Assembly: GCA_035343375.1 (NCBI GenBank)
Contig: DAOQYW010000001.1
Coordinates: 28,695-92,694, forward strand
Origin: Bacteroidales bacterium
GTDB lineage: Bacteria; Bacteroidota; Bacteroidia; Bacteroidales; ML635J-15
DNA: 64,000 nt
Direction of reading: 5' to 3'
Shown one piece after another: positions 3,001-16,840 of the stretch (within the stretch, counting starts at the first letter, position 1; each line of letters begins with the position of its first letter). The translations under genes were made by a program, and so were the position numbers. The notes under the pieces are model-generated. The model did no database searches. It was not told the origin of the DNA and saw nothing but the letters and a program-made list of their open reading frames with translations.

Positions 3001-4115
3001 TTCAAACCATTTTCATCCTCATCCTCAAGGTATGCTCCAACAACGGCATAATCTCCATAAATAGCAACCGAATGTCCGAATCTATCACCATTTTCCCTAT
3101 CAGAGGCTACAATTTTGTTTGTTTCTGTCCAAACACCAACATTATTAAAAAATATATATGCAGAGCCGGCTTCTTCTAAAGAATTATTCCCCGTCTCATC
3201 TTCATCTTCGCTGTAAGCCCCAACAATAGCATAACTTCCATGTATTGCAACTGACCAACCAAAATTGTCAAGTTCTTCTCTATCGGAAGCTACAATTTTT
3301 TGAATTTGATTCCACGTACCTGCAGTATTAAAAAAGATATATGCTGACCCTGAAGCATTTAAGGATGCCCCTCCACTCACATTTTCATCTTCATTATATG
3401 CTCCTACTATAAGATAATTTCCATCTATAGCAACAGAATAGCCAAAATAATCATTATTATATCTGTCAGAAGCAACTATTTTCTGCGTTTGTTCCCATGT
3501 TCCGGCATTATTATAAAAAATATAAGCCGATCCTGCATTATCCATGGTTGCTCCTCCAACAGCGTTTTCGTCTTCCAAATATGCTCCAACCACAATATAA
3601 TCCCCGCTTATTGCAACCGAATTGCCAAAATAATCGTTTGCAGCTCTGTCTGTAGCAACAATCTTTTGAATTTCTACCCATGTCCCACTTTCATTTTTAA
3701 AAATATATGCAGAACCGGCACTTTCTAAATTGTTAGCACCGAACTCGTCTTCATCTTCAAGAACGGCTCCTACTACTATGAAATCCCCACTAATTGCTAC
3801 CGAGTTCCCAAACCAATCTTCTGCAGATCTATCAGAAGCAACTATCTTCTGAACCTGTGTCCATGCTCCACTTTCATTTTTAAATATATATGCAGAGCCT
3901 GCCTGAATTTTGTTTGAGCCACCAACAACATCATGGTCTTCATATTTGGCACCAACAATTGCATAGTCGCCACTTATTGCAACTGAAAAGCCAAAATTGT
4001 CTTCAGCCTGACGATCAGAAGCACAAATTTTAATTATTTGATCCCAATTTTGAGAGTAGGATAATAAAAATCCGAAGGTAAAAAGCAATAAAATAACCAA
4101 TTTTGACAATTTCAT
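1..4115 (-). CDS. Large secreted FG-GAP/integrin-like repeat + MBG-repeat surface protein, paralog of 4231..8274 (C-terminus outside window)
   Basis: ATG at 4113-4115 (minus). No closed ORF is reported in this frame, so there is no in-frame stop to the window edge. My translation starts MKLSKLVILLLFTFGFLLSYSQNWDQIIKICASDRQAEDNFG..., colinear with the neighbouring 1347-aa protein. Bases 1-59 read TWANPDDIFVGTELTEAQL, matching PQIIWDNPADIYYGTPLSEIQL near the paralog's C-terminal part. Confidence 0.8.
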   Translation of the reverse strand, partial: MKLSKLVILLLFTFGFLLSYSQNWDQIIKICASDRQAEDNFGFSVAISGDYAIVGAKYEDHDVVGGSNKIQAGSAYIFKNESGAWTQVQKIVASDRSAEDWFGNSVAISGDFIVVGAVLEDEDEFGANNLESAGSAYIFKNESGTWVEIQKIVATDRAANDYFGNSVAISGDYIVVGAYLEDENAVGGATMDNAGSAYIFYNNAGTWEQTQKIVASDRYNNDYFGYSVAIDGNYLIVGAYNEDENVSGGASLNASGSAYIFFNTAGTWNQIQKIVASDREELDNFGWSVAIHGSYAIVGAYSEDEDETGNNSLEEAGSAYIFFNNVGVWTETNKIVASDRENGDRFGHSVAIYGDYAVVGAYLEDEDENGLNSHDNAGSAYIFKNDAGNWVEEQKIVSTDRSLADWFGVSVAISDTYILVGAQLEDHDPNGETNLPSAGSAYVFQNCREINIRQNTTDIADGGEFSFGVIPFGDDSGEIIFTIENTGVDNLLLTGDPKIEISGVDAAAFNIDQISVSSPVLPGTSTTFSIVFEPGSVDLHTAEISISNNDNDENPYNFTINGSGGNLTQTISGFDAIPDKVYGDDPFVVSATASSGLDVIFTSSDENVATCTGTNGSTITIINAGNCQIFANQPGNAIYLPADEVPQSMTINVKPIDVTVNPGQLKVYGESDPVFTFSVDPILVSGDEFTGSLLREAGENVGYYEIQQGSLSAGTNYNITFYSNDFEISIKPVTVTVDEGQSKVYGETDPAYTYSVSPELVIGDNFTGVLSRVAGESVGFYEILQGTLGLSSNYNLIFVSNDFEITQKNITVTTNSNQTKIYGVGDPVFSYGYTPSLVLGDSFSGVLTREIGEDVGLYEIQQGTLDLGTNYNIIFVSADFEILQKPITVVAYNSQFKTYGQNDPAFIYYSIPSPISGDEFTGALSRVAGEDIGYYAIELGSLSLGPNYDMSLTSADFQIKIKPITVTVTAGQSKEYGDDDPEFAYTTSTAIAPWDSFTGALSRAPGEAVGSYPISQGTLALNSNYNLSFVGNNFTITVKQITVTADPNQTKVYGDDDPAAYTYSVEGTLAPGDDFSGALTRDVGENVGIYQIKKGSLALSSNYNLVYVGDYFHITAKGITVTANESQSKIYGESNPAYSYTVIGELETGDSFSGQLTREVGENIGLYEIQQGTLSLSINYSINYIPAEFEIFPKSITVTADSDQSKIYGENDPVFTYTVTGSLVSGDNFSGALLREEGEDVGLYEIHQGSLVLSNNYNLVYFGDDFEITPKAITVTADAGQNKIYGETDPIFTYSVNEELVNGDNFIGTLARVEGENAGLYGILQGGLALSNNYNLNYAGADFEILKANSQITWANPDDIFVGTELTEAQL

Positions 4116-4230
4116 AATTCAAATGTTTTAATTAGTAAAATACTTATGCAATGCTTATAAGTTTTATCGTTATGACTTCAACAAATATAATAAATATTTT
4201 AATTCATAAGAATAGTTGTATAAAATGAAC

Positions 4231-7200
4231 CTACCATTTAATAACTTTTTCTGTAATGACTCCTTGACTTGTTTTAATTATAACAATATATGTTCCGGCT
4301 GGGAGCTTCGACAAATTCACAGTTATTAACTGATTTGAAAAGGTTTCTTCAATTAGTACTTCTCCTAATATATCGATTACTAAAACCTCATCTATTGTGC
4401 AATCTGAATAATTAATCATTAACAAACCCGTAGTAGGATTTGGATAGACATTGGCAATTCTTTCATAATCAATTACTGCGTTGCCCAATAGCACATTTAT
4501 AAACACAGTTGCTTGTGCGTTGTTATAATTGGTATAATCATCCGGAACAAACAGTACATGTAATTCTTGGTTATTTCCAATTTCAAGTACTGTTTCAAAA
4601 TCCGGATTATATTCAAATGTCCCCACGATATTTGCGCTAGCATTTAGTTGTATTTCGGACAATGGCGTTCCATAATAAATATCAGCAGGATTATCCCAAA
4701 TTATTTGTGGAGCAGCTTTAGTAATCTCAAAATCAGAAGAAATAAAATTAATGTCGTAGTTATAATTAATTGCTAAAGACCCTTGTTGGATTTCATATAG
4801 GCCAACATCTTCGCCCTGTTCCCTGCTTAATTGTCCTGTGAAATTGTCCCATGATTCTAATTCACCCGTAAATGAATAAGTAAATACAGGATCTTGCTCA
4901 CCAAACAGTTTTGATTGAGACTCGTCTGCAATAACAATAATTTCCTTAGGTGTAATATGAAAATAATCTCCCTCATAAATTAAATTATAATTTGAGCCTA
5001 ATGAAAGACTACCAATGTAAATATAATAATCACCAACCGTTTCTCCCATGTTTCGTGCCAATTCACCTGAAAATTCATCATCATTCAATAACGTTCCGGA
5101 AACCGAATAAGTAAAAACAGGTGGATCTGTTTCTCCATATACTTTTGCCTGATTTGGATCTGCGATTACAGTAATTTGTTTTGTGGTAATTTCAAAGTCC
5201 TCGCCAATAAAAGAAATAATATAATTTGAATTTAAAGACAGACTTCCTTGTAAAATGGAATAATGTCCTACATCTTCGCCAGGTTCTCTTATTAAATACC
5301 CAGAAAAACTATCTCCAACTGCCAAATTTCCACTTGTTGTATATGTAAACACATCGGGGTCGTTTTGACCATACTCCTTCATTTGTCCCTCATCAACAAT
5401 AACAACTATGTTTTGTTTTTTAATTTCGAAATGTTCGGGAACTAAACTAATAATATAATTTTCGTTCAAGCTCAAACTACCTAATTGAATGGCATAAAAT
5501 CCGGGATTCTCACCCGATACCCTTGATAATGTTCCCGAAAATTCGTCCCCATTGACCGGGTCTGGTACAGAATAATAAACCAGTTCAGGGTCATCTTGTC
5601 CGTATGACTTATACTGATTCGGATATGGATATATTGTAATCAATCTGTTTAAAATTTCAAAGTAATCCGCATTGAATATAATATTATAATTATCGCCCAG
5701 GTCTAAGGTTCCAATTGCAATTTCATATAATCCAACATCTTCGCCCTCTTCTCTTGATAAAGCTCCCGTAAAACTGTCGCCCAGCACCAACGCCGGAGTA
5801 AAACTATAAGTAAAAACCGGGTCAGTTTCACCATAAATTTTAAACTGTTCACTATTAACAGTTACTGTAATAGTTTTTAGAGTAATATCGAATAAACTGC
5901 TAATGAAATTAATTTCATAATTTGAACTTAATGCTAATGTCCCCATTTGTATTTCATAGGTTCCCACATCTTCACCTGGCTCACGAGATAAGCTACCCGT
6001 AAATTCATCTCCGGAAGCGAGAGGCAAGTCAAATGTATAAGTAAAAACAGGGTCCTGCTGACCATAAATCTTTGATTGTCCAGGGTCAACAGTAATAGTA
6101 ATTGGTTTCACAAGTATTTCAAAATTATCAGAATAAAAAGTAACATCATAATTCGGTCCAGCGGATAAATCTCCTTGTTGTATTTCATAACTTCCAATTT
6201 CTTCTCCCTCAATACGTGAAAGATTTCCCGTAAAAGCATCTCCTGGAACTAAAGATGGAATAACAGTAAAATTTAACAAAGGATCTGTGTCTCCATAATA
6301 TTTAAATTGTCCGGCATTTACGGTAATATCAATATGCTTTGTATTTACAACAAGCGTTTGAGGGACTTCTTCTGCCGGTAAATATATTTCATTTCCGGGC
6401 TGATTAGCAAAAATTTGACAAGTTCCTGCATTAATTATAGTTATTGTACTACCATTCGTTCCAGTACAAGTTGCAATATTATCGTCCGAGCTGGTAAATA
6501 TTACGTCTAAACCTGAGCTTGCCGTAGCCGAAACTTCAAATGGATCATCACCATAGGTTTTCTCGCTTATTGGTTCAAAACCACTTATAGATTGTGGTAA
6601 TTTCCCTCCAGAACCTGAAATTGTAAAATTATATGGATTTTCATCTGTATCATTATTACTAATACTTATTTCGGCTGTATGAATATCTGTAAATGATGGT
6701 GTAAAAACAATAGAAAATGTTGTAGCTTCTCCTGGCAAAATCGACGAATTTACCAAGGACTGATTAATATTAAAAGCCGAAGCGTTTGTTCCTGCAATTT
6801 CTATTTTTGGATCCCCACTTAATAAAAGTTCGTTAACACCGGTATTTTCAATTGTAAAAATAATCCCATCGCTACTTTCACCATAAGGAATTACTCCAAA
6901 ATCATAGCTTCCTCCATCTGCGATTTGAGTTATATCCTGTCTAACATTAATCTCTCTACAATTGTAAAAAACATAAGCAGCGCCTGCTTCGGGGAAAATA
7001 AAATGACCAAAAGGATCACTATCTTCAAGTTTTGCACCAACTAAAATATATGTCTCATCAATATCGAGTGATATACCAAAATAATCAGCTAAGCCCCTGT
7101 CATTTGAAACAATCTTTTGTTCCTGTGTCCAATTGCCTTCAATATTTTTAAAAATATATGCTGAACCCGCATTCATCAATGAATCTGTTCCGATTACATT

Positions 7201-8274
7201 TTCATCTTCGCAATATGCTCCAACTATTGCATAGTCTCCGCTAATTGCCACAGCCCAACCAAATCTATCACCTTCCTCACGATCAGCAGCAACTAATTTA
7301 TTAACTTCTGTCCAGGTGTCTGAATTATTATAAAATATATATGCTGAACCCGCTTCAATCATAGGATTATTTCCATATTCATCATCGGCTTCGTGATAAG
7401 CTCCTACAATTGCATAGCTACCATTTATTGCAACAGACCACCCAAACCAGTCGAGTTCATCTCTATCGGACGCTACAATTTTTTGTGTTTCAGTCCAATT
7501 CCCTGCAATATTTTTAAATATATACGCCGATCCCGCACAATTTATAGTATTGCTTCCATTTTCATCTTCATCTTCATAACTAGCTCCGATGATTATATAG
7601 TCTCCATCAATATCAACAGAAAAACCAAAATAGTCATTGGCTGCACGATCCGATGCAACTATTTTCTGAACCTCTTGCCATGTTCCTGAATTATTATAAA
7701 ATATATAAGCTGAACCTGAATTATCATCTTCATCGGGCGCCCCGACAACAATATAATCGTCGCTAATAGCTACAGAATATCCAAAATGATCCTGAGGCTG
7801 ACGATCAGAAGCAACGATTTTTTGTACTTGTGTCCAAACCCCACCTTCGTTTTTAAAAATATATGCAGAGCCTGCTCCACCAACTACAAAATTTCCAAGC
7901 TCATCTTCATCCTCCTTATATGCGCCAACAACTATATAATCACCATGAATATCAACAGAAGTCCCAAACCAATCTTCAGATGCTCTGTCCGAAGCCACAA
8001 TTTTTTGATATTCTGTCCAGCTTCCATCAATATTTTTAAGAATATAGGCCGATCCCGGTTCGAAGAAATGATTTTCCCCGTTTTCATCATGATCTTCGTA
8101 ATTAGCTCCTACAACAGCATAGACTCCACTAATTGCGACAGAACAACCGAAGTTGTCCTCGCCCTGACGATCCGAAGCACAGATTTTAATTATTTGATCC
8201 CAGTTTTGAGAAAAAGAAGATGATGCAACACAAAATACCAGAATAGCAAAAACAACAAGTCTAAAAAGTTTCAT
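4231..8274 (-). CDS. Secreted FG-GAP-like beta-propeller + 7 MBG-type repeats + T9SS C-terminal sorting domain surface protein (adhesin-like)
   Basis: 1347-aa ORF with a signal peptide (MKLFRLVVFAILVFCVASSSFSQ). About 8 repeats of KIVASDR..D.FG.SVAI.GDY.VVGA...GSAYIF.N. Then seven ~77-aa repeats of the form Q.K.YG..DP.FTY......GD.F.G.LSRE.GEDVG.YEI..G.L....NY.I.F....F.I. The C-terminus reads VYPNPTTGLLMINY...AGTYIVIIKT (Por secretion tail-like). Confidence 0.85.
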   Translation of the reverse strand: MKLFRLVVFAILVFCVASSSFSQNWDQIIKICASDRQGEDNFGCSVAISGVYAVVGANYEDHDENGENHFFEPGSAYILKNIDGSWTEYQKIVASDRASEDWFGTSVDIHGDYIVVGAYKEDEDELGNFVVGGAGSAYIFKNEGGVWTQVQKIVASDRQPQDHFGYSVAISDDYIVVGAPDEDDNSGSAYIFYNNSGTWQEVQKIVASDRAANDYFGFSVDIDGDYIIIGASYEDEDENGSNTINCAGSAYIFKNIAGNWTETQKIVASDRDELDWFGWSVAINGSYAIVGAYHEADDEYGNNPMIEAGSAYIFYNNSDTWTEVNKLVAADREEGDRFGWAVAISGDYAIVGAYCEDENVIGTDSLMNAGSAYIFKNIEGNWTQEQKIVSNDRGLADYFGISLDIDETYILVGAKLEDSDPFGHFIFPEAGAAYVFYNCREINVRQDITQIADGGSYDFGVIPYGESSDGIIFTIENTGVNELLLSGDPKIEIAGTNASAFNINQSLVNSSILPGEATTFSIVFTPSFTDIHTAEISISNNDTDENPYNFTISGSGGKLPQSISGFEPISEKTYGDDPFEVSATASSGLDVIFTSSDDNIATCTGTNGSTITIINAGTCQIFANQPGNEIYLPAEEVPQTLVVNTKHIDITVNAGQFKYYGDTDPLLNFTVIPSLVPGDAFTGNLSRIEGEEIGSYEIQQGDLSAGPNYDVTFYSDNFEILVKPITITVDPGQSKIYGQQDPVFTYTFDLPLASGDEFTGSLSREPGEDVGTYEIQMGTLALSSNYEINFISSLFDITLKTITVTVNSEQFKIYGETDPVFTYSFTPALVLGDSFTGALSREEGEDVGLYEIAIGTLDLGDNYNIIFNADYFEILNRLITIYPYPNQYKSYGQDDPELVYYSVPDPVNGDEFSGTLSRVSGENPGFYAIQLGSLSLNENYIISLVPEHFEIKKQNIVVIVDEGQMKEYGQNDPDVFTYTTSGNLAVGDSFSGYLIREPGEDVGHYSILQGSLSLNSNYIISFIGEDFEITTKQITVIADPNQAKVYGETDPPVFTYSVSGTLLNDDEFSGELARNMGETVGDYYIYIGSLSLGSNYNLIYEGDYFHITPKEIIVIADESQSKLFGEQDPVFTYSFTGELESWDNFTGQLSREQGEDVGLYEIQQGSLAINYNYDINFISSDFEITKAAPQIIWDNPADIYYGTPLSEIQLNASANIVGTFEYNPDFETVLEIGNNQELHVLFVPDDYTNYNNAQATVFINVLLGNAVIDYERIANVYPNPTTGLLMINYSDCTIDEVLVIDILGEVLIEETFSNQLITVNLSKLPAGTYIVIIKTSQGVITEKVIKW

Positions 8275-8524: not shown

Positions 8525-11500
8525 TTATGCCCACATAACAAGTCCCGAATCGTGTTGATAAGGTAACATCTCATTATGTGCAAAGATTCTTATTGCATAA
8601 TTGTAAAATCCGGGCTTTTTAGGCGCTCCGGTAATTACAAATTTTGCAATTTTATTCCTAACACTGACGAGTTCTGCAGTATATTTCTCATAAATTTTAG
8701 TCGAGCCATTTGCAATAGCACTAGTGATAATTATTTCAACCCCTATATCTTCGGCTTTTATATCACTAAGATTAATTTCAACCTCGCCTGTAAATGTCTC
8801 GTTAAGATTCATAGGATTTTTCTCATAATCCGGGAATTTAGCACTTACAATTTTTAAATTACTCCATGAACGTTTGATAGTGTTTTTCCAATCTGCTATT
8901 TTAATAGCCAACTCATAATCATTCTTTCTTATTTCTTCGGAACGTAAATACAATTTATTATAATATCTGTCAATATAATCATCTATCATCCTTTTTGTAG
9001 TAAACTGCGGAGCGACATCAGCAATAGAGTTCTTAATAAACTTAATCCAGTCGTGAGGCGTTCCATTTTCATCTCGTTTATAAAATAGAGGAACTATCTC
9101 ATTTTCGAGCATATTATAAATCATTTGTGTATCAAGCTCGTTTTGTAATTCCTGATTTTGATAAGTTCTTTCGGCGGGTAGTGCCCATCCGGCATTTTCC
9201 CGATAACCTTCAACCCACCAACCATCTAAAACACTAAAATGCAAAGCCCCGTTCATTACGGCCTTCATCCCACTTGTTCCTGAAGCTTCTTGTGGGCGAG
9301 TAGGAGTATTAAGCCATATATCAACTCCCTGAACCATTTTCTTTGCAAGACGAATGTCGTAATTTTCTATAAAAATAATTTTCCCTAAAAATGCTGGTAA
9401 TTTAGAAATACCGACTATCTTCTTTATCAAATCCTGTCCTGCTTTATCGTTTGGATGAGCTTTGCCAGCGAATAAAATTTGTACAGGCATATCTTTATTA
9501 TTTAATATCCTGGAAAGTCTGTCAAGATTTCTCAATAAAAGATCACCTCTTTTATAAGTAGCAAACCTACGCGCAAAACCTATTGTAAGAACATTTTCGT
9601 TTATGTTTTCAAGAATATCAACAAGATTTTTGGGATCTTCGTACCTCCTGATAACATTTTTACGTACTCTCTCTTTTACATCAGAAATAAGTTTCGCTCT
9701 TTGTTTCTGTCGAATTCCCCAAATTGTTTCATCACTAACATTGTGTATAATGTTCCAATATGATTTGTTCGACAAATCCTTAAGAAATTCTGTTCCAAAT
9801 GTTTTTTCATACAGCAATTTCCATTCTTTTGCTGTCCATGTCTGATAATGTACTCCGTTTGTTACATATCCCACATGATTTTCTTCTGCAAAATATCCTT
9901 TCCACAAATCAACAAACATATCCTGCGAGACTTTACCATGAAGCATTGAAACACCGTTAACCTCCTGTGACACATTTGCTGCAAGAAAACTCATTGAGAA
10001 TTTATCCTCGGGTTTAAGTTTCCCCAAACTCATCAATTCCTCCCACGAGATTTTAAGCCTCTCGGGATAATGTGACATATAAACACGCATCATATCTTCG
10101 TCAAAAAGATCGTGTCCGGCAGGTACCGGGGTGTGGGTTGTAAAAAGTGTAGATGCTCTAATTATTTCGAGAGCTTCATCAAATTTAAGATTACGCTTTG
10201 TTCTTAATATCCTTAATCTTTCCAGTCCTATAAATGCTGCGTGACCTTCATTACAATGATAAATATTTGGTCTTATTTCCAAAGCTTGTAATGCTCTAAT
10301 CCCTCCTATACCAAGAATCATTTCTTGTTTTAATCTAAATTCTATATCCCCACCATAAAGTTGTGATGTAATGTATTTATCCTGCTCCTGGTTTTCATCA
10401 ACATCGGTATCCAGCAAGTACAAGTCTATGCGTCCCACATTTACTTTCCATATTTTTGCATAAACATTACGCCCCGGAAAGTGTACCATTATTTTTAATT
10501 GTGCTCCACTTTCATCTCTTACCGGTAAAATAGGCATTTTATCAAAATTTTGAGCAATATATTCTGCATTTTGTTCTCCTAACGAAGTAATCTTTTGCTT
10601 AAAATATCCGAAACGATACAATAACCCAATTCCAACTATGTCGGTATTAGTATCACTCGCTTCTTTAAGATAATCTCCCGCTAATATTCCTAAGCCTCCT
10701 GAAAATATTTTAATATTATCGCTAAATCCATACTCCATACTAAAATAAGCAACTTTTGGGGGCATTTTATTTTCACCTTCTTTCATATAGGCAGAAAATT
10801 CCTCACAAACAGAATCGTACATTTCAGTAAACACATTGTCCGATTCAAGTTCTATCATTCTTTCCAGAGAAATGTCTTCGAGAAATGTAACCGGATTGTA
10901 TGAATTCTCCCGCCATTGTTTTGGATCAATGTATTTGAACATTTGACTTGCCTTATAATTCCAAGTCCACCAAAGGTTTATTGATAATTCTATAAGTTTT
11001 TCAAATCTTTTCGGCATAGTTGTTTGCACTTCAATCTTACGCCAAAGAGGAGATTGAATTTCAACATTTAAAACTTCTGTGGTTGGTCTCGCTTGTGGCT
11101 TATTTGCAATTAAATCTTCGCGTCCTTCAATTTTGCTTAAAGCAATTGTATATGCCTTTTTATACTCTTCAATTAAATTTGACCATAAAGCATTTTCAGA
11201 AGCCTTAAACGCTGCTACTGACAATGCTTCCCTATCTGATTCTGTGAGATTTAAAAATTCAAGAATGTATTTCGCTGCATTTTCAACAACTTCATTAGAA
11301 TTTTCTTCATCTCTTGCTATGACTTCAACGCATTTATCGTTAACATCCAGAACTGACTTCATCCATTTTCCGAAACCGGCAAGATTTGTTGTTATTGTGG
11401 GTATCCCAAAAGCAACTGATTCTAAAGGAGTATATCCCCAAGGTTCGTAATACGAAATAAAAGCCGTTAAATCTATTCCCGGTAATAAATCATAGTATGA

Positions 11501-12760
11501 TAAATTAAAAATACCGTCATTACCATTCAAATAAGATGGGACGAATAGAATTTTAACTTTATCTTCCGGTCTATTAAAAAGTCCGTTGGCTTTTATTCTG
11601 CTTAAAATTGGATCGTATTCAGAATCATGCAGATTGTGAGTAAGAAAATTATTCTCAATATGTCTCTCTCCATCTAAATTCTCAAGAACATTCAATAAAG
11701 GTCTTGACGGACCGTAATTGTTACCCGGTACTAAAATATATGCCAGGACTTCTTGCTTTATCTCTTGTTTATTTAATTCTCCTAAAGCATCTATAAATAA
11801 ATCAAACCCTTTATTGTAGAACTCATATCTACCTGAAGTTGATATAATTACAGGTTCTTTAGAATAGGAATAATTACAAAGAATTTCAGCAATTTTAATG
11901 AACTTTTCTCGTGCTATCGTTCTTTTGTCTTTATATTCTGTTGTTTTAGGAACAAAATTGTTTTCAAAACCATTAGGGGTTACTACATCTACTTCCTTTT
12001 TTAAAAATTGAGAACATTCTGCAGCAGTAATACTACTTACAGTGGTAAAGACATCAGCATTTTGAGCACTTAATTTCTCAAGGCTTTGTTTTGATGATAT
12101 ATTTAATTCACGTGCAATTAGGTCACCATTATACTGGCTTAGATTTTTATATAATGGCAATCTGTTTCCTGCAATACTGCGACCCACTGTAGTAGCATGT
12201 GTTGTAAATACTGTAGCAACATGAGGCATTTGTTTTTTTAGATAAAGAATTCCTGTCCCAGTCATCCACTCATGAAAATGAGCAATAACTTTATCGTGAA
12301 CAAATAAATTAAAATTTACAAAACTCTCTATTACTTTTGCAGCAGCATAACCGAATAGTGCAGGTTCAATATAATCCCACTGTCCGGCTAATGAATCGAG
12401 TTTATATTCTTCCCAAAAACTAAAAAGAATTGCATCTTTCTGACTAATATAGTTCGAAAAATCTATAAGTAATACTTTGGGGGTTCCTTGAATATTCCAT
12501 CTACCTGTACGAATTCGTATCCCTTCTGTCTCAGTTTTTCTGTGCCAGTCCGAAAAAAGTGAGTTATCTTCAACAAATTCAGGATGATCTGTTGACTCTC
12601 GCCATGTGTCAGGACCAATCAAAATTAGCTCTTTACAGTTTTTTGCTAATTCAATTGACTTAGTGGATATCACTGTGTGTATTCCACCAACTTTATTGCA
12701 TACTTCCCAACTAACTTCAAAAACATAATCAGGTCTTACAATTTTACTAATATCGTACAT
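8525..12760 (-). CDS. Fused glycogen synthase (GT3-like N-terminal half) / alpha-glucan phosphorylase (GT35-like C-terminal half)
   Basis: 1411-aa ORF. The N-terminus [21 protein letters not shown] is typical of eukaryote-type glycogen synthases. The C-terminal half carries phosphorylase-like segments ([55 protein letters not shown]), including the PLP-lysine context TSGMK. Confidence 0.85.
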   Translation of the reverse strand: [1411 protein letters not shown]

Positions 12761-12971
12761 TTTTATATAGTTTTATATGATTATTTTTCGTCTAATTAAT
12801 ATTAAAAACAAAAATAATAAAATATAATTAAATCTTCTCCTAAGTTATGTTACCGTTTTATTATCATTTACACCTTTAATATTAATCATTGGCTAAAGTA
12901 AAATATAAATATTTGATTTTAAAAACTGTTCGTATTGTTTTTTTCAATAATTTTACACAGTTAATTTTTAT

Positions 12972-13217
12972 ATGATGAAAAAAGTTAAAGTCTATTTTTG
13001 GCTAAAAGCAGCAGGTTTGCTCTCCGCATTGATTGTTTTATTGATTGGAACAAATGCTTGTCGCGACAGAAGGCATGTTACAAAATATGGGCCTCCACCT
13101 ACTGATTATGATTACGATCAAACAATTACAAAATATGGTGTACCTGTAGATTATGAGGAGATTAATTTTATTGAAGAAGATACAACAAAAGTTAACGTAG
13201 AACCTGAATTGCACTAA
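12972..13217 (+). CDS. Small putative lipoprotein / candidate radical-SAM substrate (81 aa)
   Basis: Signal peptide MMKKVKVYFWLKAAGLLSALIVLLIGTNAC with a Cys at its end. The mature part is acidic and aromatic, with two copies of a TKYG.P..DY motif (VTKYGPPPTDYDYD, ITKYGVPVDYEE). It lies 64 nt upstream of the rSAM gene on the same strand. Confidence 0.55.
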   Translation: MMKKVKVYFWLKAAGLLSALIVLLIGTNACRDRRHVTKYGPPPTDYDYDQTITKYGVPVDYEEINFIEEDTTKVNVEPELH

Positions 13218-13281
13218 AATTAAAACTATTATCAAGTTTTCCATTCCACTAATTAACCTTGTCTAACAAGTATTCTGTTCA

Positions 13282-14343
13282 ATGCAAAAAAAAATTGCTC
13301 AAAAACTTCACAATCAATACATTAAAGCTCAATCAAAGCTTCACAAATTAAACTACTTCTTTTGGGAATGTACGTCAAACTGTAATCTTTCGTGTCTTCA
13401 TTGCGGAAGTGACTGCAAGGTGATTCCTGATATTAAGGATATGCCAGTAGAAGATTTTATTGGTATAGCAAAACAAGTAGCCAAAAAATATAACCCTAAC
13501 GAAGTAATGATAGTATTAACGGGAGGAGAGCCTCTAATGAGAAAAGACCTCCCCGAATTTGGCAAGAAAATTACAGCTCTGGGTTTTCCCTGGGGTATGG
13601 TTAGCAATGGCTATTTGTGGACACCTGAGTTGTTTCGCACATTAAGAAATAGTGGTCTTCGATCGGCAACTATAAGTTTAGATGGTCTGGAGGCTAATCA
13701 CGACTGGCTAAGAGGGAAAACCGGGTCTTTTCAAAGAGCGATAAATGCAATTAGTTTACTAACCTCTGAGAAAGGAATGGTTTATGATGTCGTTACTTGT
13801 GTCAATCAAAGAAACATTACAGAATTGGACAACATCAAAGATTTGCTTATAAAAACAGGAGTAAAAAAATGGAGGCTTTTTGTAATAGATCCTATTGGAA
13901 GGGCAGCATCTAATCCCGAATTACTACTGGACTCAAAGCAATTTAAATACGTTTTGGACTTTATTGTAGAAAACCGAAATGGTAAAGAAATTTCGACAAG
14001 TTACGGTTGCGATGGATATTTAGATGATTATGAAACGAAAATCAGAGATGGATTCTTCTTCTGCAGAGCCGGTGTTCATGTTGCATCTATTTTGTCAAAT
14101 GGTGACATTTGTGCATGTCCGAATATTAACAGAGGCTTTGTTCAAGGTAATATATATAATGATAATTTTCTCGATATTTGGGAGAATAAATTTATAGAAT
14201 TCAGAAACCGAAGTGTTTTCAAAACAGGCATTTGCAAAGATTGTAAAGAATGGAGTAATTGCCGAAGCGATGGCATGCATTTACACGAACCTGGAAATGA
14301 AAGTCCATTAATCTGTTATAATAAACTTCTCAGAGGAAATTGA
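13282..14343 (+). CDS. Radical SAM / SPASM domain protein
   Basis: CNLSCLHC (Cx3Cx2C) near the N-terminus and GGEPL shortly after. The C-terminal Cys cluster CRAGVHVASILSNGDICACPN...CKDCKEWSNCRSDG is typical of the SPASM auxiliary Fe-S domain. Confidence 0.9.
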   Translation: MQKKIAQKLHNQYIKAQSKLHKLNYFFWECTSNCNLSCLHCGSDCKVIPDIKDMPVEDFIGIAKQVAKKYNPNEVMIVLTGGEPLMRKDLPEFGKKITALGFPWGMVSNGYLWTPELFRTLRNSGLRSATISLDGLEANHDWLRGKTGSFQRAINAISLLTSEKGMVYDVVTCVNQRNITELDNIKDLLIKTGVKKWRLFVIDPIGRAASNPELLLDSKQFKYVLDFIVENRNGKEISTSYGCDGYLDDYETKIRDGFFFCRAGVHVASILSNGDICACPNINRGFVQGNIYNDNFLDIWENKFIEFRNRSVFKTGICKDCKEWSNCRSDGMHLHEPGNESPLICYNKLLRGN

Positions 14344-14347
14344 AAAA

Positions 14348-15529
14348 TTATTTTTCAATTCTTATAATAAAATCACTAAGAATATTCATGTAGTTTACAA
14401 AAGCTTCGTATGGAGAGTTATAAGGATTGAAGTACTTATGGACATCTCCGTCCGAAAACCATTTGGTACACATATAATAGAAGTGGTCTGAAGTCTGAAG
14501 ATATAACCAATCTTTCCAAATTTCAGGATCGTTAATTTCTTTTACTCTGTCATAACATTGATACAAATTATTAAAAGCCTCATCCTGAAGTTCGTTTCCC
14601 AACCATGCTGTTAAATCTCTCTCTTCATCTGCCCACGAAATAGGATATGGAACGTGTATTGCTCCAACAGGATCAACTTTCTTAACTATTTCCGACGGAG
14701 TATTAAATTTAAAGTTAGAGTATTTTAAAACTGCATTAGGAAAAGCCTTTAAAAATTCGAAGATACCGGTTTCTTTCCATTGATGTTCGCCAAATGTTTC
14801 ATAATCCATAAATAAATTGATTATCTCATCTTTAGGATCAAGAGCGTTTAACCATGAAACAAACTTTTCGGTAGTAAGAGGGAATTCCTGCCAATCGTGA
14901 TTTGAAAATCTAAATGCGATATCATCAGACAGTTTAAAATTCTTCAATAAAACTTTCAATTTCGGATTAATCGCATTACAATATAAATAATTTGGACTTT
15001 TCCATCCCAGGACATGTTTTGCTCCTTCTGTTATCATTCCTTTATAGCCCATATCGGCAACATATTCTCCTATCCAATCTGAATAAATAAGCTCGGTATT
15101 TCTAAAGACTTTCGGTTCTACACCAAAAACTTGTTTAACTTTATCTCTGTGTAGTTTTACCTGTCTTTCAAATTCTTCTCTATTTTTTAACGCAGACAAT
15201 GAGTGAGAATATGTTTCTGATAATATTTCAACCTTACCGGTATCAACAAGTGCTCTAAAACTGTCAAGCACATCGGGAGCATACATTTCAAACTGATCAA
15301 TTGCAACACCTGAAATCGAATAAGCTATTTTAAAGTTGTTGCCATATTCGTTAATTAAATCTAAAAACGTTTTATTTGCAGGCAGATAACACTTTTCAGC
15401 AACTTTTCGCATAATGGTTTTGTTTTCAAAATCATTATAATAATAATGATCATTGCCGATATCAAAAAACTTATAACGCTTTAACCGGAAGGGCTGATGA
15501 ACCTGAAAATAAAAGCAAATCGTTCTCAT
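14348..15529 (-). CDS. Glycoside hydrolase family 57 (alpha-amylase / branching-enzyme-like)
   Basis: N-terminus MRTICFYFQVHQPFRLKRY is the characteristic GH57 start. Internal DYETFGEH-type segment. Sits in a glycogen gene context. Confidence 0.8.
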   Translation of the reverse strand: MRTICFYFQVHQPFRLKRYKFFDIGNDHYYYNDFENKTIMRKVAEKCYLPANKTFLDLINEYGNNFKIAYSISGVAIDQFEMYAPDVLDSFRALVDTGKVEILSETYSHSLSALKNREEFERQVKLHRDKVKQVFGVEPKVFRNTELIYSDWIGEYVADMGYKGMITEGAKHVLGWKSPNYLYCNAINPKLKVLLKNFKLSDDIAFRFSNHDWQEFPLTTEKFVSWLNALDPKDEIINLFMDYETFGEHQWKETGIFEFLKAFPNAVLKYSNFKFNTPSEIVKKVDPVGAIHVPYPISWADEERDLTAWLGNELQDEAFNNLYQCYDRVKEINDPEIWKDWLYLQTSDHFYYMCTKWFSDGDVHKYFNPYNSPYEAFVNYMNILSDFIIRIEK

Positions 15530-15550
15530 ATATAATGTTTTATTATAATT

Positions 15551-16840
15551 TTAAATATCTCCTAAAAGTGATTTATAAACCTCTCTGACCTTAAATGCTG
15601 AATTTTCCCACCTCAGATTTTCTACTTCTTGTTTACCGTATTTCTTAAACATCTTTGACAATCCTTCATAATGTAAAAGGCCGTAAATAGCATCAGCCAT
15701 ATCGTCAACATCCCAGAAATCAACTTTAAGAGCATGCTTCAATACCTCGGCAACTCCTGATTGTTTCGAAATAATCACAGGCACATCAGACATCATAGCT
15801 TCAAGAGGGGAAATTCCAAATGGTTCGCTAACAGATGGCATTACATAAACATCGCTCAACGAAAACATTTCGTACACCTCCTGTCCTTTCAAAAATCCTG
15901 CAAAATGAAATTTTGTTGCTATTCCGTGCTTTGCTACACGTTTTATCATTCTGTTTAACATGTCGCCACTACCAGCCATCACAAATCGGACATTAGGGTC
16001 TTTATCAATGACTTTTTTCGCAGCCTCGATAAAATAATCAGGGCCTTTCTGAAATGTAACTCTACCTAAAAAAGTAACAGTTTTTTCTTTAAATGCTTTA
16101 GTTAGTTTAAAATCTTCCGGTAAGGTAACAGGTTCAACAGAATTATGAACTGTTACTACTTTTTCGGCAGGAATTCCATATCTTTCAATTATTATTTTCC
16201 TTGTAAGATTACTAACAGCAATAACTTTATCTGCAGCTTCCATTCCCGCCCTTTCGATATCATAAACTCCTTGATTAATATTATCTCCACTACGATCGAA
16301 TTCTGTAGCATGCATGTGCACAACCAGTGGTTTACCAGAAACCTCCTTAGCTGCTATTCCTGCCGAATAGGTCAACCAATCATGAGCATGAATAATATCA
16401 AAATTATTTGAGGCTGCAATATAAGAAGCTATAAGAGCATATCTGGCAACTTCTTGAAACAAGTCTTTTCCATAAGACCCTGTAAAAGTAAATTTTGTTT
16501 TAAAAACCTGCTCTCTGTATTCAGATCCTAGAAAAATCTTTTTGTCATATATTTTTGCAAATTCTTCAGGGTCCATATACGGAATAAGATTTGAACCTAC
16601 TTCTAGATATCTGAACTTATCCCAAAATTCTTCATATTGCATTCTTTTTTCTGTAATAACAACATCTCCTGCATCCTTTAGCTGAATATGTTTTAAGTCT
16701 TCATCGCCATATGTTTTAGGTACAACGAAGATAACTTCTGTGCCAAAATTTGACAAGCCTTTTGTTAACCCATAACAAGCCGTTCCCAAACCCCCGGTAA
16801 TATGTGGCGGAAATTCCCACCCAAACATCAAAACTTTCAT
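15551..16840 (-). CDS. Glycosyltransferase family 4 (glycogen synthase-like)
   Basis: MKVLMFGWEFPPHITGGLGTACYGL N-terminus and a C-terminal GT-B segment (PSVSEPFGISPLEAM, E-x7-E type). Adjacent to GH57 and the debranching enzyme. Confidence 0.8.
   Translation of the reverse strand: MKVLMFGWEFPPHITGGLGTACYGLTKGLSNFGTEVIFVVPKTYGDEDLKHIQLKDAGDVVITEKRMQYEEFWDKFRYLEVGSNLIPYMDPEEFAKIYDKKIFLGSEYREQVFKTKFTFTGSYGKDLFQEVARYALIASYIAASNNFDIIHAHDWLTYSAGIAAKEVSGKPLVVHMHATEFDRSGDNINQGVYDIERAGMEAADKVIAVSNLTRKIIIERYGIPAEKVVTVHNSVEPVTLPEDFKLTKAFKEKTVTFLGRVTFQKGPDYFIEAAKKVIDKDPNVRFVMAGSGDMLNRMIKRVAKHGIATKFHFAGFLKGQEVYEMFSLSDVYVMPSVSEPFGISPLEAMMSDVPVIISKQSGVAEVLKHALKVDFWDVDDMADAIYGLLHYEGLSKMFKKYGKQEVENLRWENSAFKVREVYKSLLGDI

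Follow-up and report, generated by a model that had tools for sequence, protein, structure and literature searches.

A radical SAM/SPASM enzyme of Bacteroidota and its lipoprotein-like partner with repeated X-Tyr-Gly sites: a possible splicease-type system

Results

A two-gene locus with a small lipoprotein-like protein

The window analysed here is a stretch of 64,000 nucleotides from a Bacteroidales bacterium (contig DAOQYW010000001.1). On its forward strand, a gene for an 81-aa lipoprotein-like protein (12972..13217) is followed, after an intergenic gap of 64 nt, by a gene for a 353-aa radical S-adenosylmethionine (rSAM)/SPASM enzyme (13282..14343). An earlier note on this DNA had reported both open reading frames (ORFs) with this gap, a signal peptide ending in Cys and two related motifs in the small protein, and a Cx3Cx2C motif with a C-terminal SPASM cluster in the enzyme, and all of these were found as quoted. 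The note had further proposed that the small protein is the substrate and its repeated motif the modification sites, which gains support from the pairing of the two genes in 24 of 24 loci and from the conservation of the motif. We consider it most likely, judging from these comparisons, that the enzyme modifies the neighbouring lipoprotein precursor at repeated X-Tyr-Gly (XYG) sites.

The precursor protein, delimited by the ORF call and backed by homologue clusters and substitution rates, starts with MMKKVKVYFWLKAAGLLSALIVLLIGTNAC, and its mature part runs from RDRRHVTKYGPPPTDYDYDQTITKYGVPVDYEE; its start is probably the second Met (MKKVKV, 80 aa, position 12975), as in the orthologues. By sequence pattern, the first 30 residues (12972..13061, forward strand) form a signal peptide with a basic and aromatic N-region (KKVKVYFWLK), ending at Cys30 (TGT, 13059-13061) of a T-N-A-C lipobox with an atypical position -3, and the precursor is accordingly called lipoprotein-like. 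The mature part of 51 aa is acidic, rich in Pro and Tyr, and contains VTKYGPPPTDYDYD and ITKYGVPVDYEE; a Pfam scan of it gave no match. The precursor holds a single Cys. In the first XYG site (13083..13091, forward strand), Lys38-Tyr39-Gly40 sits 8 residues past Cys30 in the context HVT-KYG-PPP, and K38, Y39, G40, P41 and P42 are invariant in the alignment of homologues. The second site (13131..13139, forward strand) is Lys54-Tyr55-Gly56 in the context TIT-KYG-VPV, with T53, K54, Y55, G56 and P58 invariant in the same alignment.

A search of 5.8 billion proteins returned 14 homologue clusters, all unannotated, whose signal peptide and TKYG(P/V)P units are all invariant and whose linkers vary. 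The homologues carry two or three units, a third copy of the TKYG unit being present in orthologues. Compared with four orthologues, the ratio of non-synonymous to synonymous substitution rates (dN/dS) of the precursor was 0.06-0.16, with saturated synonymous sites. Given the 14 clusters and this ratio, the comparative evidence marks the small ORF as a real gene under purifying selection.

Alternatively, the small ORF and its duplicated motif could have arisen by chance in AT-rich intergenic DNA beside an orphan rSAM gene. The ORF is short, its score lies under the TIGR04134 cut-off, and the locus scans identified no promoter or terminator: sigma-70 promoter matches were at shuffle level, no terminators were found at the locus, and the exact Bacteroidetes element TAnnTTTG was missing there, with a single near-match, AATATTTG, at 12905-12912. 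This account has to face a protein conserved in 14 clusters, the low dN/dS at saturated synonymous sites, a partner in 24/24 loci and 93 YG dipeptides where 13.3 are expected. The conservation data rule out a chance origin of the ORF, and we give the idea practically no credence.

The earlier note had also mentioned a TIGRFAMs entry pairing an rSAM enzyme with a putative lipoprotein. Such a pair is real (TIGR04133/TIGR04134), and the enzyme is, from its profile match, a bona fide TIGR04133 member (464.1 bits, cut-off 425; residues 2-349 on profile positions 2-348 of 350). The partner model fits the small ORF less well, with a TIGR04134 score of 13.5 bits (E = 0.056), below the cut-off of 39.8. 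The match is confined to the signal peptide plus the first YG site, at profile positions 2-48 of 150, and the ~110-aa central beta-rich domain of TIGR04134 proteins is missing from the window precursor. The TIGR04134 layout, a lipobox Cys followed within ~0-12 residues by X-Y-G-x-P, is seen as a pattern, Cys30 being followed by KYGPP.

Conservation of the gene pair

To describe the pair across genomes, 24 loci were considered, counting the window: 19 related genome loci (48-85% enzyme identity), one annotated record each from Parabacteroides and Treponema saccharophilum, a Saprospiraceae genome assembly and a 1-Mb metagenome contig. Enzyme identity ranged from 42% to 85% over the whole set, which includes one spirochaete. 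In all 24 loci the enzyme gene is directly preceded, on the same strand, by 1-7 small secreted ORFs, nearly all of them lipoprotein-like, with partners of the signal peptidase I (SPI)/type IX secretion system (T9SS) type also found in two loci. All-against-all clustering of the neighbouring ORFs gave no other conserved neighbour of the enzyme. Two of the points that the earlier note had named for checking, co-occurrence with synteny and conservation of the ORF, were thus covered: a secreted partner lies upstream in every locus, and the ORF is conserved as described above. The signal peptides of the partners are 26-33 aa and unusually long, with an extended basic/aromatic N-region; their lipobox Cys is invariant, and position -1 is S, A or G in 48 of 49 partners. 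The enzyme family itself is large, as a search at E <= 1e-10 gave 7,641 homologues of the enzyme, with Bacteroidales of gut and mouth as the source of many.

Two distant loci encode canonical TIGR04134 proteins of ~160 aa (80-101 bits), and canonical members from loci L018, L019 and L016 scored 70-101 bits. The model misses the short forms of the window type and all arrays (2-7 partners). In longer TIGR04134 members the central domain is a CarboxypepD_reg-like beta-sandwich, and the Parabacteroides member carries a CarboxypepD_reg domain.

X-Tyr-Gly as the conserved core of the partners

YG statistics were calculated for 50 partner proteins with 2000 shuffles. The dipeptide was observed 93 times against 13.3 +/- 3.5 expected from composition, a ~7-fold excess (shuffle maximum 28), and at least one YG was present in 48 of the 50 partners versus 11 expected. 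The site consensus is [T/C]-X-Y-G-[V>P,I]-[P>I,V], in which X is K (51), E (12), D (6), R (5), M (5) or L (4), and Cys in some members, including cases where the lipobox Cys itself is X (…FEA-CYG-VP). Gly at Y+2 (KYGGP) was found in 5 of the 93 sites. In short and canonical forms alike, the first XYG usually lies 0-11 residues past the Cys; canonical TIGR04134 proteins, in which the site stands just past the lipobox, show no variation at the lipobox Cys, the Tyr or the Pro and at least 90% conservation of the Gly. Beyond the signal peptide, X-Tyr-Gly-(V/P/I)-(P/V/I) is the sole element conserved among the partners, and mature regions, linkers and copy number diverge freely while the motif stays. 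Because the residue before Tyr varies, and Lys and Asp are not conserved, the alignments point to Tyr-Gly as the conserved core, with Lys and Asp as lineage detail. Of the Lys/Tyr/Pro/Asp motif that the earlier note had described, Tyr-Gly followed by a hydrophobic residue and Pro is therefore retained, while Lys and Asp fall outside the core (X = K, E, D, R, M, L or C).

A scan of all window ORFs gave two occurrences of the strict motif, both in the precursor ORF, which is also the only lipoprotein-like ORF of the window with XYG(V/P)P. Another gene of the window (4231-8274, reverse strand) encodes T9SS cargo of 1347 aa that combines 7 FG-GAP repeats and 7 MBG_2 "YGX-type" domains (K-x-YG-x-x-DP) with a Por_Secre_tail. 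The YG repeats of this cargo are part of a folded domain, and it is not among the conserved neighbours of the enzyme; this protein is likely a false positive for YG-based splicease mining.

Partner variants and surrounding genes

Partner arrays were seen in loci L006, L007, L009, L011, L012 and L013, with up to seven paralogues (e.g. L007 3417-5968). Many array partners have a low-complexity, helical "DSIA(K/R/A)xDSIA" spacer between lipobox and XYG sites, the DS dipeptide occurring 95 times in partners against 22.5 expected, and in some of them a Cys precedes the Tyr by one or two residues (IC-EYG, C-YG). Non-lipoprotein partners with an SPI-type signal ending …AA/QYGAP are encoded at L016 71-925 and L034 1474-2292; these variants combine a TIGR04134-like domain (70 bits) with a T9SS C-terminal sorting domain, so that XYG can also sit at the mature N-terminus of T9SS cargo. 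In L035 (4215-5945), as a single observation, the enzyme gene is directly followed by one for a peptidylarginine deiminase secreted through the T9SS (PAD_porph and Por_Secre_tail). The spirochaete locus, on pTS1 of Treponema saccharophilum (L022 2806-5098), has a TIGR04134/TIGR04133 pair adjoining a divergent gene for an Mpi-family "master DNA invertase", an arrangement suggestive of horizontal transfer out of the Bacteroidota and, perhaps, of phase-variable expression.

The genes flanking the pair in the window are all on the opposite strand and encode a glycogen synthase/phosphorylase fusion, glycoside hydrolase family 57 (GH57), glycosyltransferase (GT4/GT5) and debranching (GDE) enzymes. 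In the fusion protein, a single chain of 1411 aa (8525-12760, reverse strand), a glycogen synthase of eukaryote type (PF05693) is joined to DUF3417 and to a domain of alpha-glucan phosphorylase. Glycogen genes recur beside the pair in the three closest relatives and 3-4 kb away in one Dysgonomonas locus (L019 330-3016, 48% enzyme identity), where GT4 and GH57 lie within 3-4.4 kb of the pair (compare 14348-16840 of the window); in Parabacteroides, Treponema and Saprospiraceae they are not at that position. The remark of the earlier note that the pair interrupts a glycogen cluster is descriptively right, but this context is lineage-specific and without demonstrated functional meaning. A functional tie to glycogen metabolism was rejected, the context being confined to the closest relatives and the one Dysgonomonas locus.

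Features of the enzyme

Pfam recognised a Radical_SAM domain (70.4 bits) and a SPASM domain (36.1 bits, residues 261-322) in the enzyme. The CX3CX2C motif (C34, C38, C41; 13381..13404, forward strand) is embedded in the invariant columns WECTxxCNLxCxHCGSDC, of which the HCGS signature is common to the window enzyme and its XYG-associated relatives. The SPASM auxiliary-cluster region (14008..14316, forward strand), assigned by Pfam and alignment, contains seven Cys (C243, C261, C279, C318, C321, C327 and C345) that are invariant in TIGR04133, as is H333.

The AlphaFold 2 (AF2) model of the enzyme has a predicted local distance difference test score (pLDDT) of 92.4 and a predicted template modelling score of 0.90. 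Its closest solved folds are SkfB, SuiB and PqqE, which are maturases of peptides that are ribosomally synthesized and then post-translationally modified (RiPPs), together with BlsE; to our knowledge, no splicease structure has been solved. The model contains a family-specific N-terminal helix (residues 2-20; 13285..13341, forward strand; pLDDT ~88-95), which is charged and amphipathic, is missing in the Nostoc and Agathobacter relatives described below, and is accompanied by the nearly invariant residues Y13, H21 and L23. Neither the Pfam scan nor the AF2 model revealed an N-terminal RiPP recognition element (RRE) domain. The N-terminus being this charged helix and not a signal peptide, the enzyme is predicted to be cytoplasmic. 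No ORF resembling the Y protein of splicease systems was found between or after the two genes. Candidates for an activating helix, from sequence and model, are the long signal peptide of the precursor or the enzyme's own helix 2-20, and the latter might, by analogy, be a built-in counterpart of the activating helix of PlpY or leader (PMC11414181).

Relationship of the enzyme to XYG-associated enzymes

When the window enzyme was searched by tblastn against annotated plasmids, TIGR04133 members ranked first, followed by an enzyme of Agathobacter rectalis (3e-42) and by a "nif11-class maturase 3" from Nostoc, a member of the PlpX family (TIGR04103; 4e-32). Both outrank TIGR04053, GDL-motif, pseudo-SAM, MftC and NirJ enzymes. 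In BLASTP, the window and Nostoc enzymes share 28% identity over 329 aa (E = 4e-40). The nearest annotated relatives, namely the PlpX family, the GDL-motif maturases and the Agathobacter enzyme, all adjoin XYG peptides: the Nostoc enzyme adjoins a Nif11 precursor ending …SIA-LYG-LPPELF, the Agathobacter enzyme an unannotated ORF ending …GPV-MYG-TGVRM, and a Burkholderia relative adjoins DUF1842/DUF1843 proteins with PYGVA, MYGVA and MYGVG. In the reverse search, TIGR04133 was the third or fourth best model for the XYG-associated relatives. TIGR04133 and these relatives also share 6 derived residues, against a mean of 0.9 in controls, a difference to which we give little weight, as the control groups do not form natural clades. 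The enzyme-level link to XYG-associated enzymes, as read from these comparisons, is supportive and not exclusive.

In the Agathobacter rectalis plasmid (NZ_CP143948; L023), a small ORF ending …NLFGPVMYGTGVRM (3713-3919, forward strand) lies directly upstream of the rSAM/SPASM enzyme and a major facilitator superfamily transporter (4001-6432). The enzyme is ~32% identical to both the PlpX family and TIGR04133, and the locus has the appearance of an unannotated cluster of spliceotide-like type in a Firmicute of the human gut.

These searches also bear on whether the lipoprotein is a substrate at all. The enzyme might instead act on a small molecule, such as a tetrapyrrole or cofactor in the manner of AhbD or NirJ, or on another protein, and the lipoprotein might be a co-transcribed partner that, for example, binds or uses the product in the envelope. 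The hidden Markov models of AhbD (135.7 bits) and NirJ2 (129.2 bits) are among the best secondary matches of the enzyme, which has no N-terminal RRE domain, and the canonical partners carry a folded CarboxypepD_reg-like domain. By BLAST, however, NirJ (1e-10) is much more distant than the PlpX family (4e-32), and an RRE is also missing in binary spliceases and in the anaerobic sulfatase-maturating enzyme (anSME). A binding partner should moreover keep its fold, and not a linear motif of 4-5 residues in disordered, diverging linkers with variable copy number, whereas the domain-less short forms hold nothing beyond a signal peptide and XYG units. We regard such a non-substrate role of the lipoprotein as improbable.

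Discussion

Proposed reaction at the X-Tyr-Gly sites

An XYG site beside an rSAM/SPASM enzyme is the defining hallmark of spliceotides, in which PlpX excises a tyramine equivalent (C8H9NO, 135.06 Da) from Tyr. Tyramine excision at XYG is the work of rSAM/SPASM enzymes called spliceases; some systems are binary and do without the helper Y protein (PlpY), a precursor may hold several sites, whole proteins are also substrates, and the spliceotide products inhibit Ser and Cys proteases (PMC11414181, PMC11626197, PMC10533398, PMC9811515, PMC10849128). Since XYG is the recognition motif of rSAM spliceases, the statement of the earlier note that the pair has no known chemistry is, by this analogy, probably not so. 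Whether the reaction of the window enzyme is a tyramine excision of the splicease type we judge to be an even question, and the prospects that its product is a lipid-anchored spliceotide, possibly a tethered protease inhibitor, appear equally balanced.

Several observations weigh against this reading. One published DYG site was left unspliced, and in the present set ~20% of the sites have Asp or Glu as X. The partners are called lipoproteins on the basis of sequence patterns. With 124.7 bits on TIGR04103 (IPR026482; cut-off 725), the enzyme does not belong to the validated splicease family; it is ~27-31% identical to the XYG-clade enzymes, and the AhbD model scores it as well as or above the splicease models (135.7 bits) and is near-equal on the XYG relatives. 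A 4-residue deletion in TIGR04133 has removed the fourth Cys of CX2CX5CX3C, which the XYG-clade enzymes retain. C30, C173 and H333 are invariant and specific to TIGR04133, C45 and C243 being common with the Agathobacter enzyme, and this distinct set of auxiliary-cluster ligands could, on sequence grounds, mean a different chemistry. In neighbour-joining trees, which did not include AhbD, anSME and three-residue cyclophane-forming enzymes (3-CyFE), a first tree joined TIGR04133 and the XYG clade with 97% bootstrap, a value we did not rely on: re-aligning the set with NirJ and one more member lowered the support to 33-48%, and leaving out long-branch taxa gave 62-87%.

The same pair could thus be joined by another Tyr-Gly chemistry, such as a C-C or C-O crosslink, a cyclophane, an epimerisation, a hydroxylation or an undescribed reaction, with a modified lipoprotein as product. 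SPASM enzymes at ~30% identity often differ in reaction, and repeated aromatic motifs are also typical of triceptide precursors; the auxiliary Cys pattern of TIGR04133 is distinct, its N-terminal helix is specific to the family, and its phylogenetic link to spliceases is unstable. Against such a chemistry, a strict Gly after Tyr with a free residue before it is the splicease signature and not the Omega-X-X of triceptides, and the closest relatives are all XYG-associated. The triceptide cyclophane was rejected, as X2 is invariantly Gly and the Gly at Y+2 (X3) in 5/93 sites lacks a beta-carbon, which leaves no Tyr-to-X3 cyclophane there; a Cys thioether crosslink was rejected too, the single Cys of the window peptide making one at each site impossible. 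On balance we think another chemistry on this pair unlikely, though deserving of attention.

One form of this idea is that TIGR04133 is no splicease and carries out a so far undescribed Tyr-Gly-directed radical reaction on lipoproteins and T9SS cargo just behind their signal peptides. This would fit the family's own auxiliary-cluster ligand set and its built-in N-terminal helix, and we hold it to be rather doubtful, slightly more so than the broader idea.

Proposed mechanism

If the reaction is tyramine splicing, the following course can be envisaged. As the enzyme has no signal peptide, it would meet the precursor in the cytoplasm and act on the unfolded protein before export. The long signal peptide may double as the enzyme-recognition leader, considering its unusual length, its basic/aromatic N-region and the position of the first XYG close behind the Cys. 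A 5'-deoxyadenosyl radical would set off a reaction in which Tyr is lost save for its carbonyl carbon (C8H9NO, -135.06 Da at each site), leaving a reactive keto-amide; the window precursor would then contain two alpha-keto-beta-lysine residues, with a total change of -270.1 Da. The modified precursor would be exported by Sec, modified with diacylglycerol on Cys30, cleaved by signal peptidase II (SPII) and N-acylated, an order proposed from knowledge of the family and from the precedents of anSME and of diacylglycerol-bearing RiPPs (DAG-RiPPs). More speculatively, the tethered ketoamide could be a membrane-bound, multi-warhead, reversible covalent inhibitor of Ser/Cys proteases, whose P1 specificity would be set by the X residue (K, R, E, D, M or L in paralogue arrays).

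Novelty and significance

The gene pair is catalogued and uncharacterised: the searchable literature contained no paper on either TIGR04133 or TIGR04134 and no chemistry proposed for them since their definition. One literature match for "TIGR04134" was discarded, since it concerns a T9SS C-terminal domain and the number given is probably a misprint. Nor does the searchable literature describe the splicease reading, the multi-site short form missed by TIGR04134, the paralogue arrays or the SPI/T9SS variants, and the survey of Scott et al. (Chem 2022) may already include the type; its totals, as given by citing papers and reviews, are 189 genera, 939 predicted systems and 27 validated, with the types not itemised in those sources. 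The earlier note had called a lipid-anchored, rSAM-modified peptide an unusual RiPP-like product; lipid-anchored RiPPs as such now have a precedent in the DAG-RiPPs, reported for MNIO enzymes in 2026 (PMC13056109).

The XYG core ties a large orphan system to tyramine splicing, and "function unknown" becomes a concrete question of -135.06 Da per site. Should splicing hold, these would be the first lipoprotein RiPPs made by radical SAM enzymes, with ketoamide warheads tethered to the cell envelope, and the DAG-RiPP concept would extend beyond MNIO enzymes. Arrays varying the warhead residue (K, R, E, D, M, L) would then suggest a panel of protease inhibitors in bacteria living among host and microbial proteases, and compact, leader-light spliceases would become available for protein engineering. 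If instead the undescribed reaction holds, the result would be a new modification of envelope proteins in thousands of Bacteroidota, including gut Parabacteroides, Phocaeicola, Prevotella and Dysgonomonas.

Comparison with known systems

The 3-CyFE, which form triceptides, are SPASM rSAM enzymes whose targets are short aromatic motifs repeated in their precursors. Their motif, Omega-X-X, has a variable middle residue and a beta-carbon on X3, whereas the window family has an unchanging Gly behind Tyr, and 5/93 sites have Gly as X3.

The anSME works in the cytoplasm as a SPASM enzyme that has no RRE; its target is a short linear motif in proteins that are still unfolded and await export by Sec, and it makes formylglycine from Cys or Ser. 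In sequence it is only a distant relative, not among the PDB matches of the window enzyme at E < 1e-5, and the window precursor, unlike anSME substrates, has no sulfatase motif.

With the TIGR04133/TIGR04134 "rSAM/lipoprotein system", two hypothetical equivalogs of NCBIfam, the window pair shares a full-member enzyme and a partner upstream on the same strand. The TIGR04134 members of Dysgonomonas, Parabacteroides and Treponema have a lipobox followed by an (E/M)YGxP site, and the window precursor likewise has a lipobox followed by XYG. Unlike canonical members, it has no parts other than a signal peptide, two TKYG(P/V)P units and an acidic tail.

DAG-RiPPs (DybA/DybH and other MNIO systems; PNAS 2026, PMC13056109) resemble the window pair in the short precursor with a lipoprotein signal peptide as leader, the cytoplasmic enzyme, the minimal two-gene unit and the enrichment in Bacteroidota. 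Their layout, a short SPII/lipobox precursor with a cytoplasmic enzyme alongside, is found in the window pair at the level of sequence pattern. In DAG-RiPPs, cytoplasmic modification by the MNIO enzyme precedes lipidation through SPII (PMC13056109). The two systems differ in the enzyme, radical SAM/SPASM here versus MNIO, and in the site, XYG here versus CPxCGxG; the DAG-RiPP study mined MNIO neighbourhoods only, and its text makes no mention of rSAM (PMC13056109).

The spliceotides (PlpXY, PcpXY and the binary RhaX, RcsX and RasX; Morinaka 2018, Scott 2022, Richter 2024, Padhi 2024) differ from the window system on both sides of the pair. Unlike spliceases, the window enzyme belongs to neither TIGR04103 nor TIGR03913, has a different set of auxiliary Cys and carries an extra N-terminal helix. 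Its precursor, known here from sequence, has an SPII (or, in relatives, SPI/T9SS) signal peptide in place of a Nif11, NHLP or DUF1843 leader, and X is mostly Lys. What is shared is an rSAM/SPASM enzyme beside one or more XYG sites followed by a hydrophobic residue and Pro, a variable X, a binary architecture without Y protein and, apparently, the same SPASM neighbourhood. In their downstream context, the sites KYGVPV, KYGPPP and EYGVVFPY match the published splice tags (…GYGLPI and …GYGVVFPG) and the LYGLPP of the Nif11 precursor from Nostoc.

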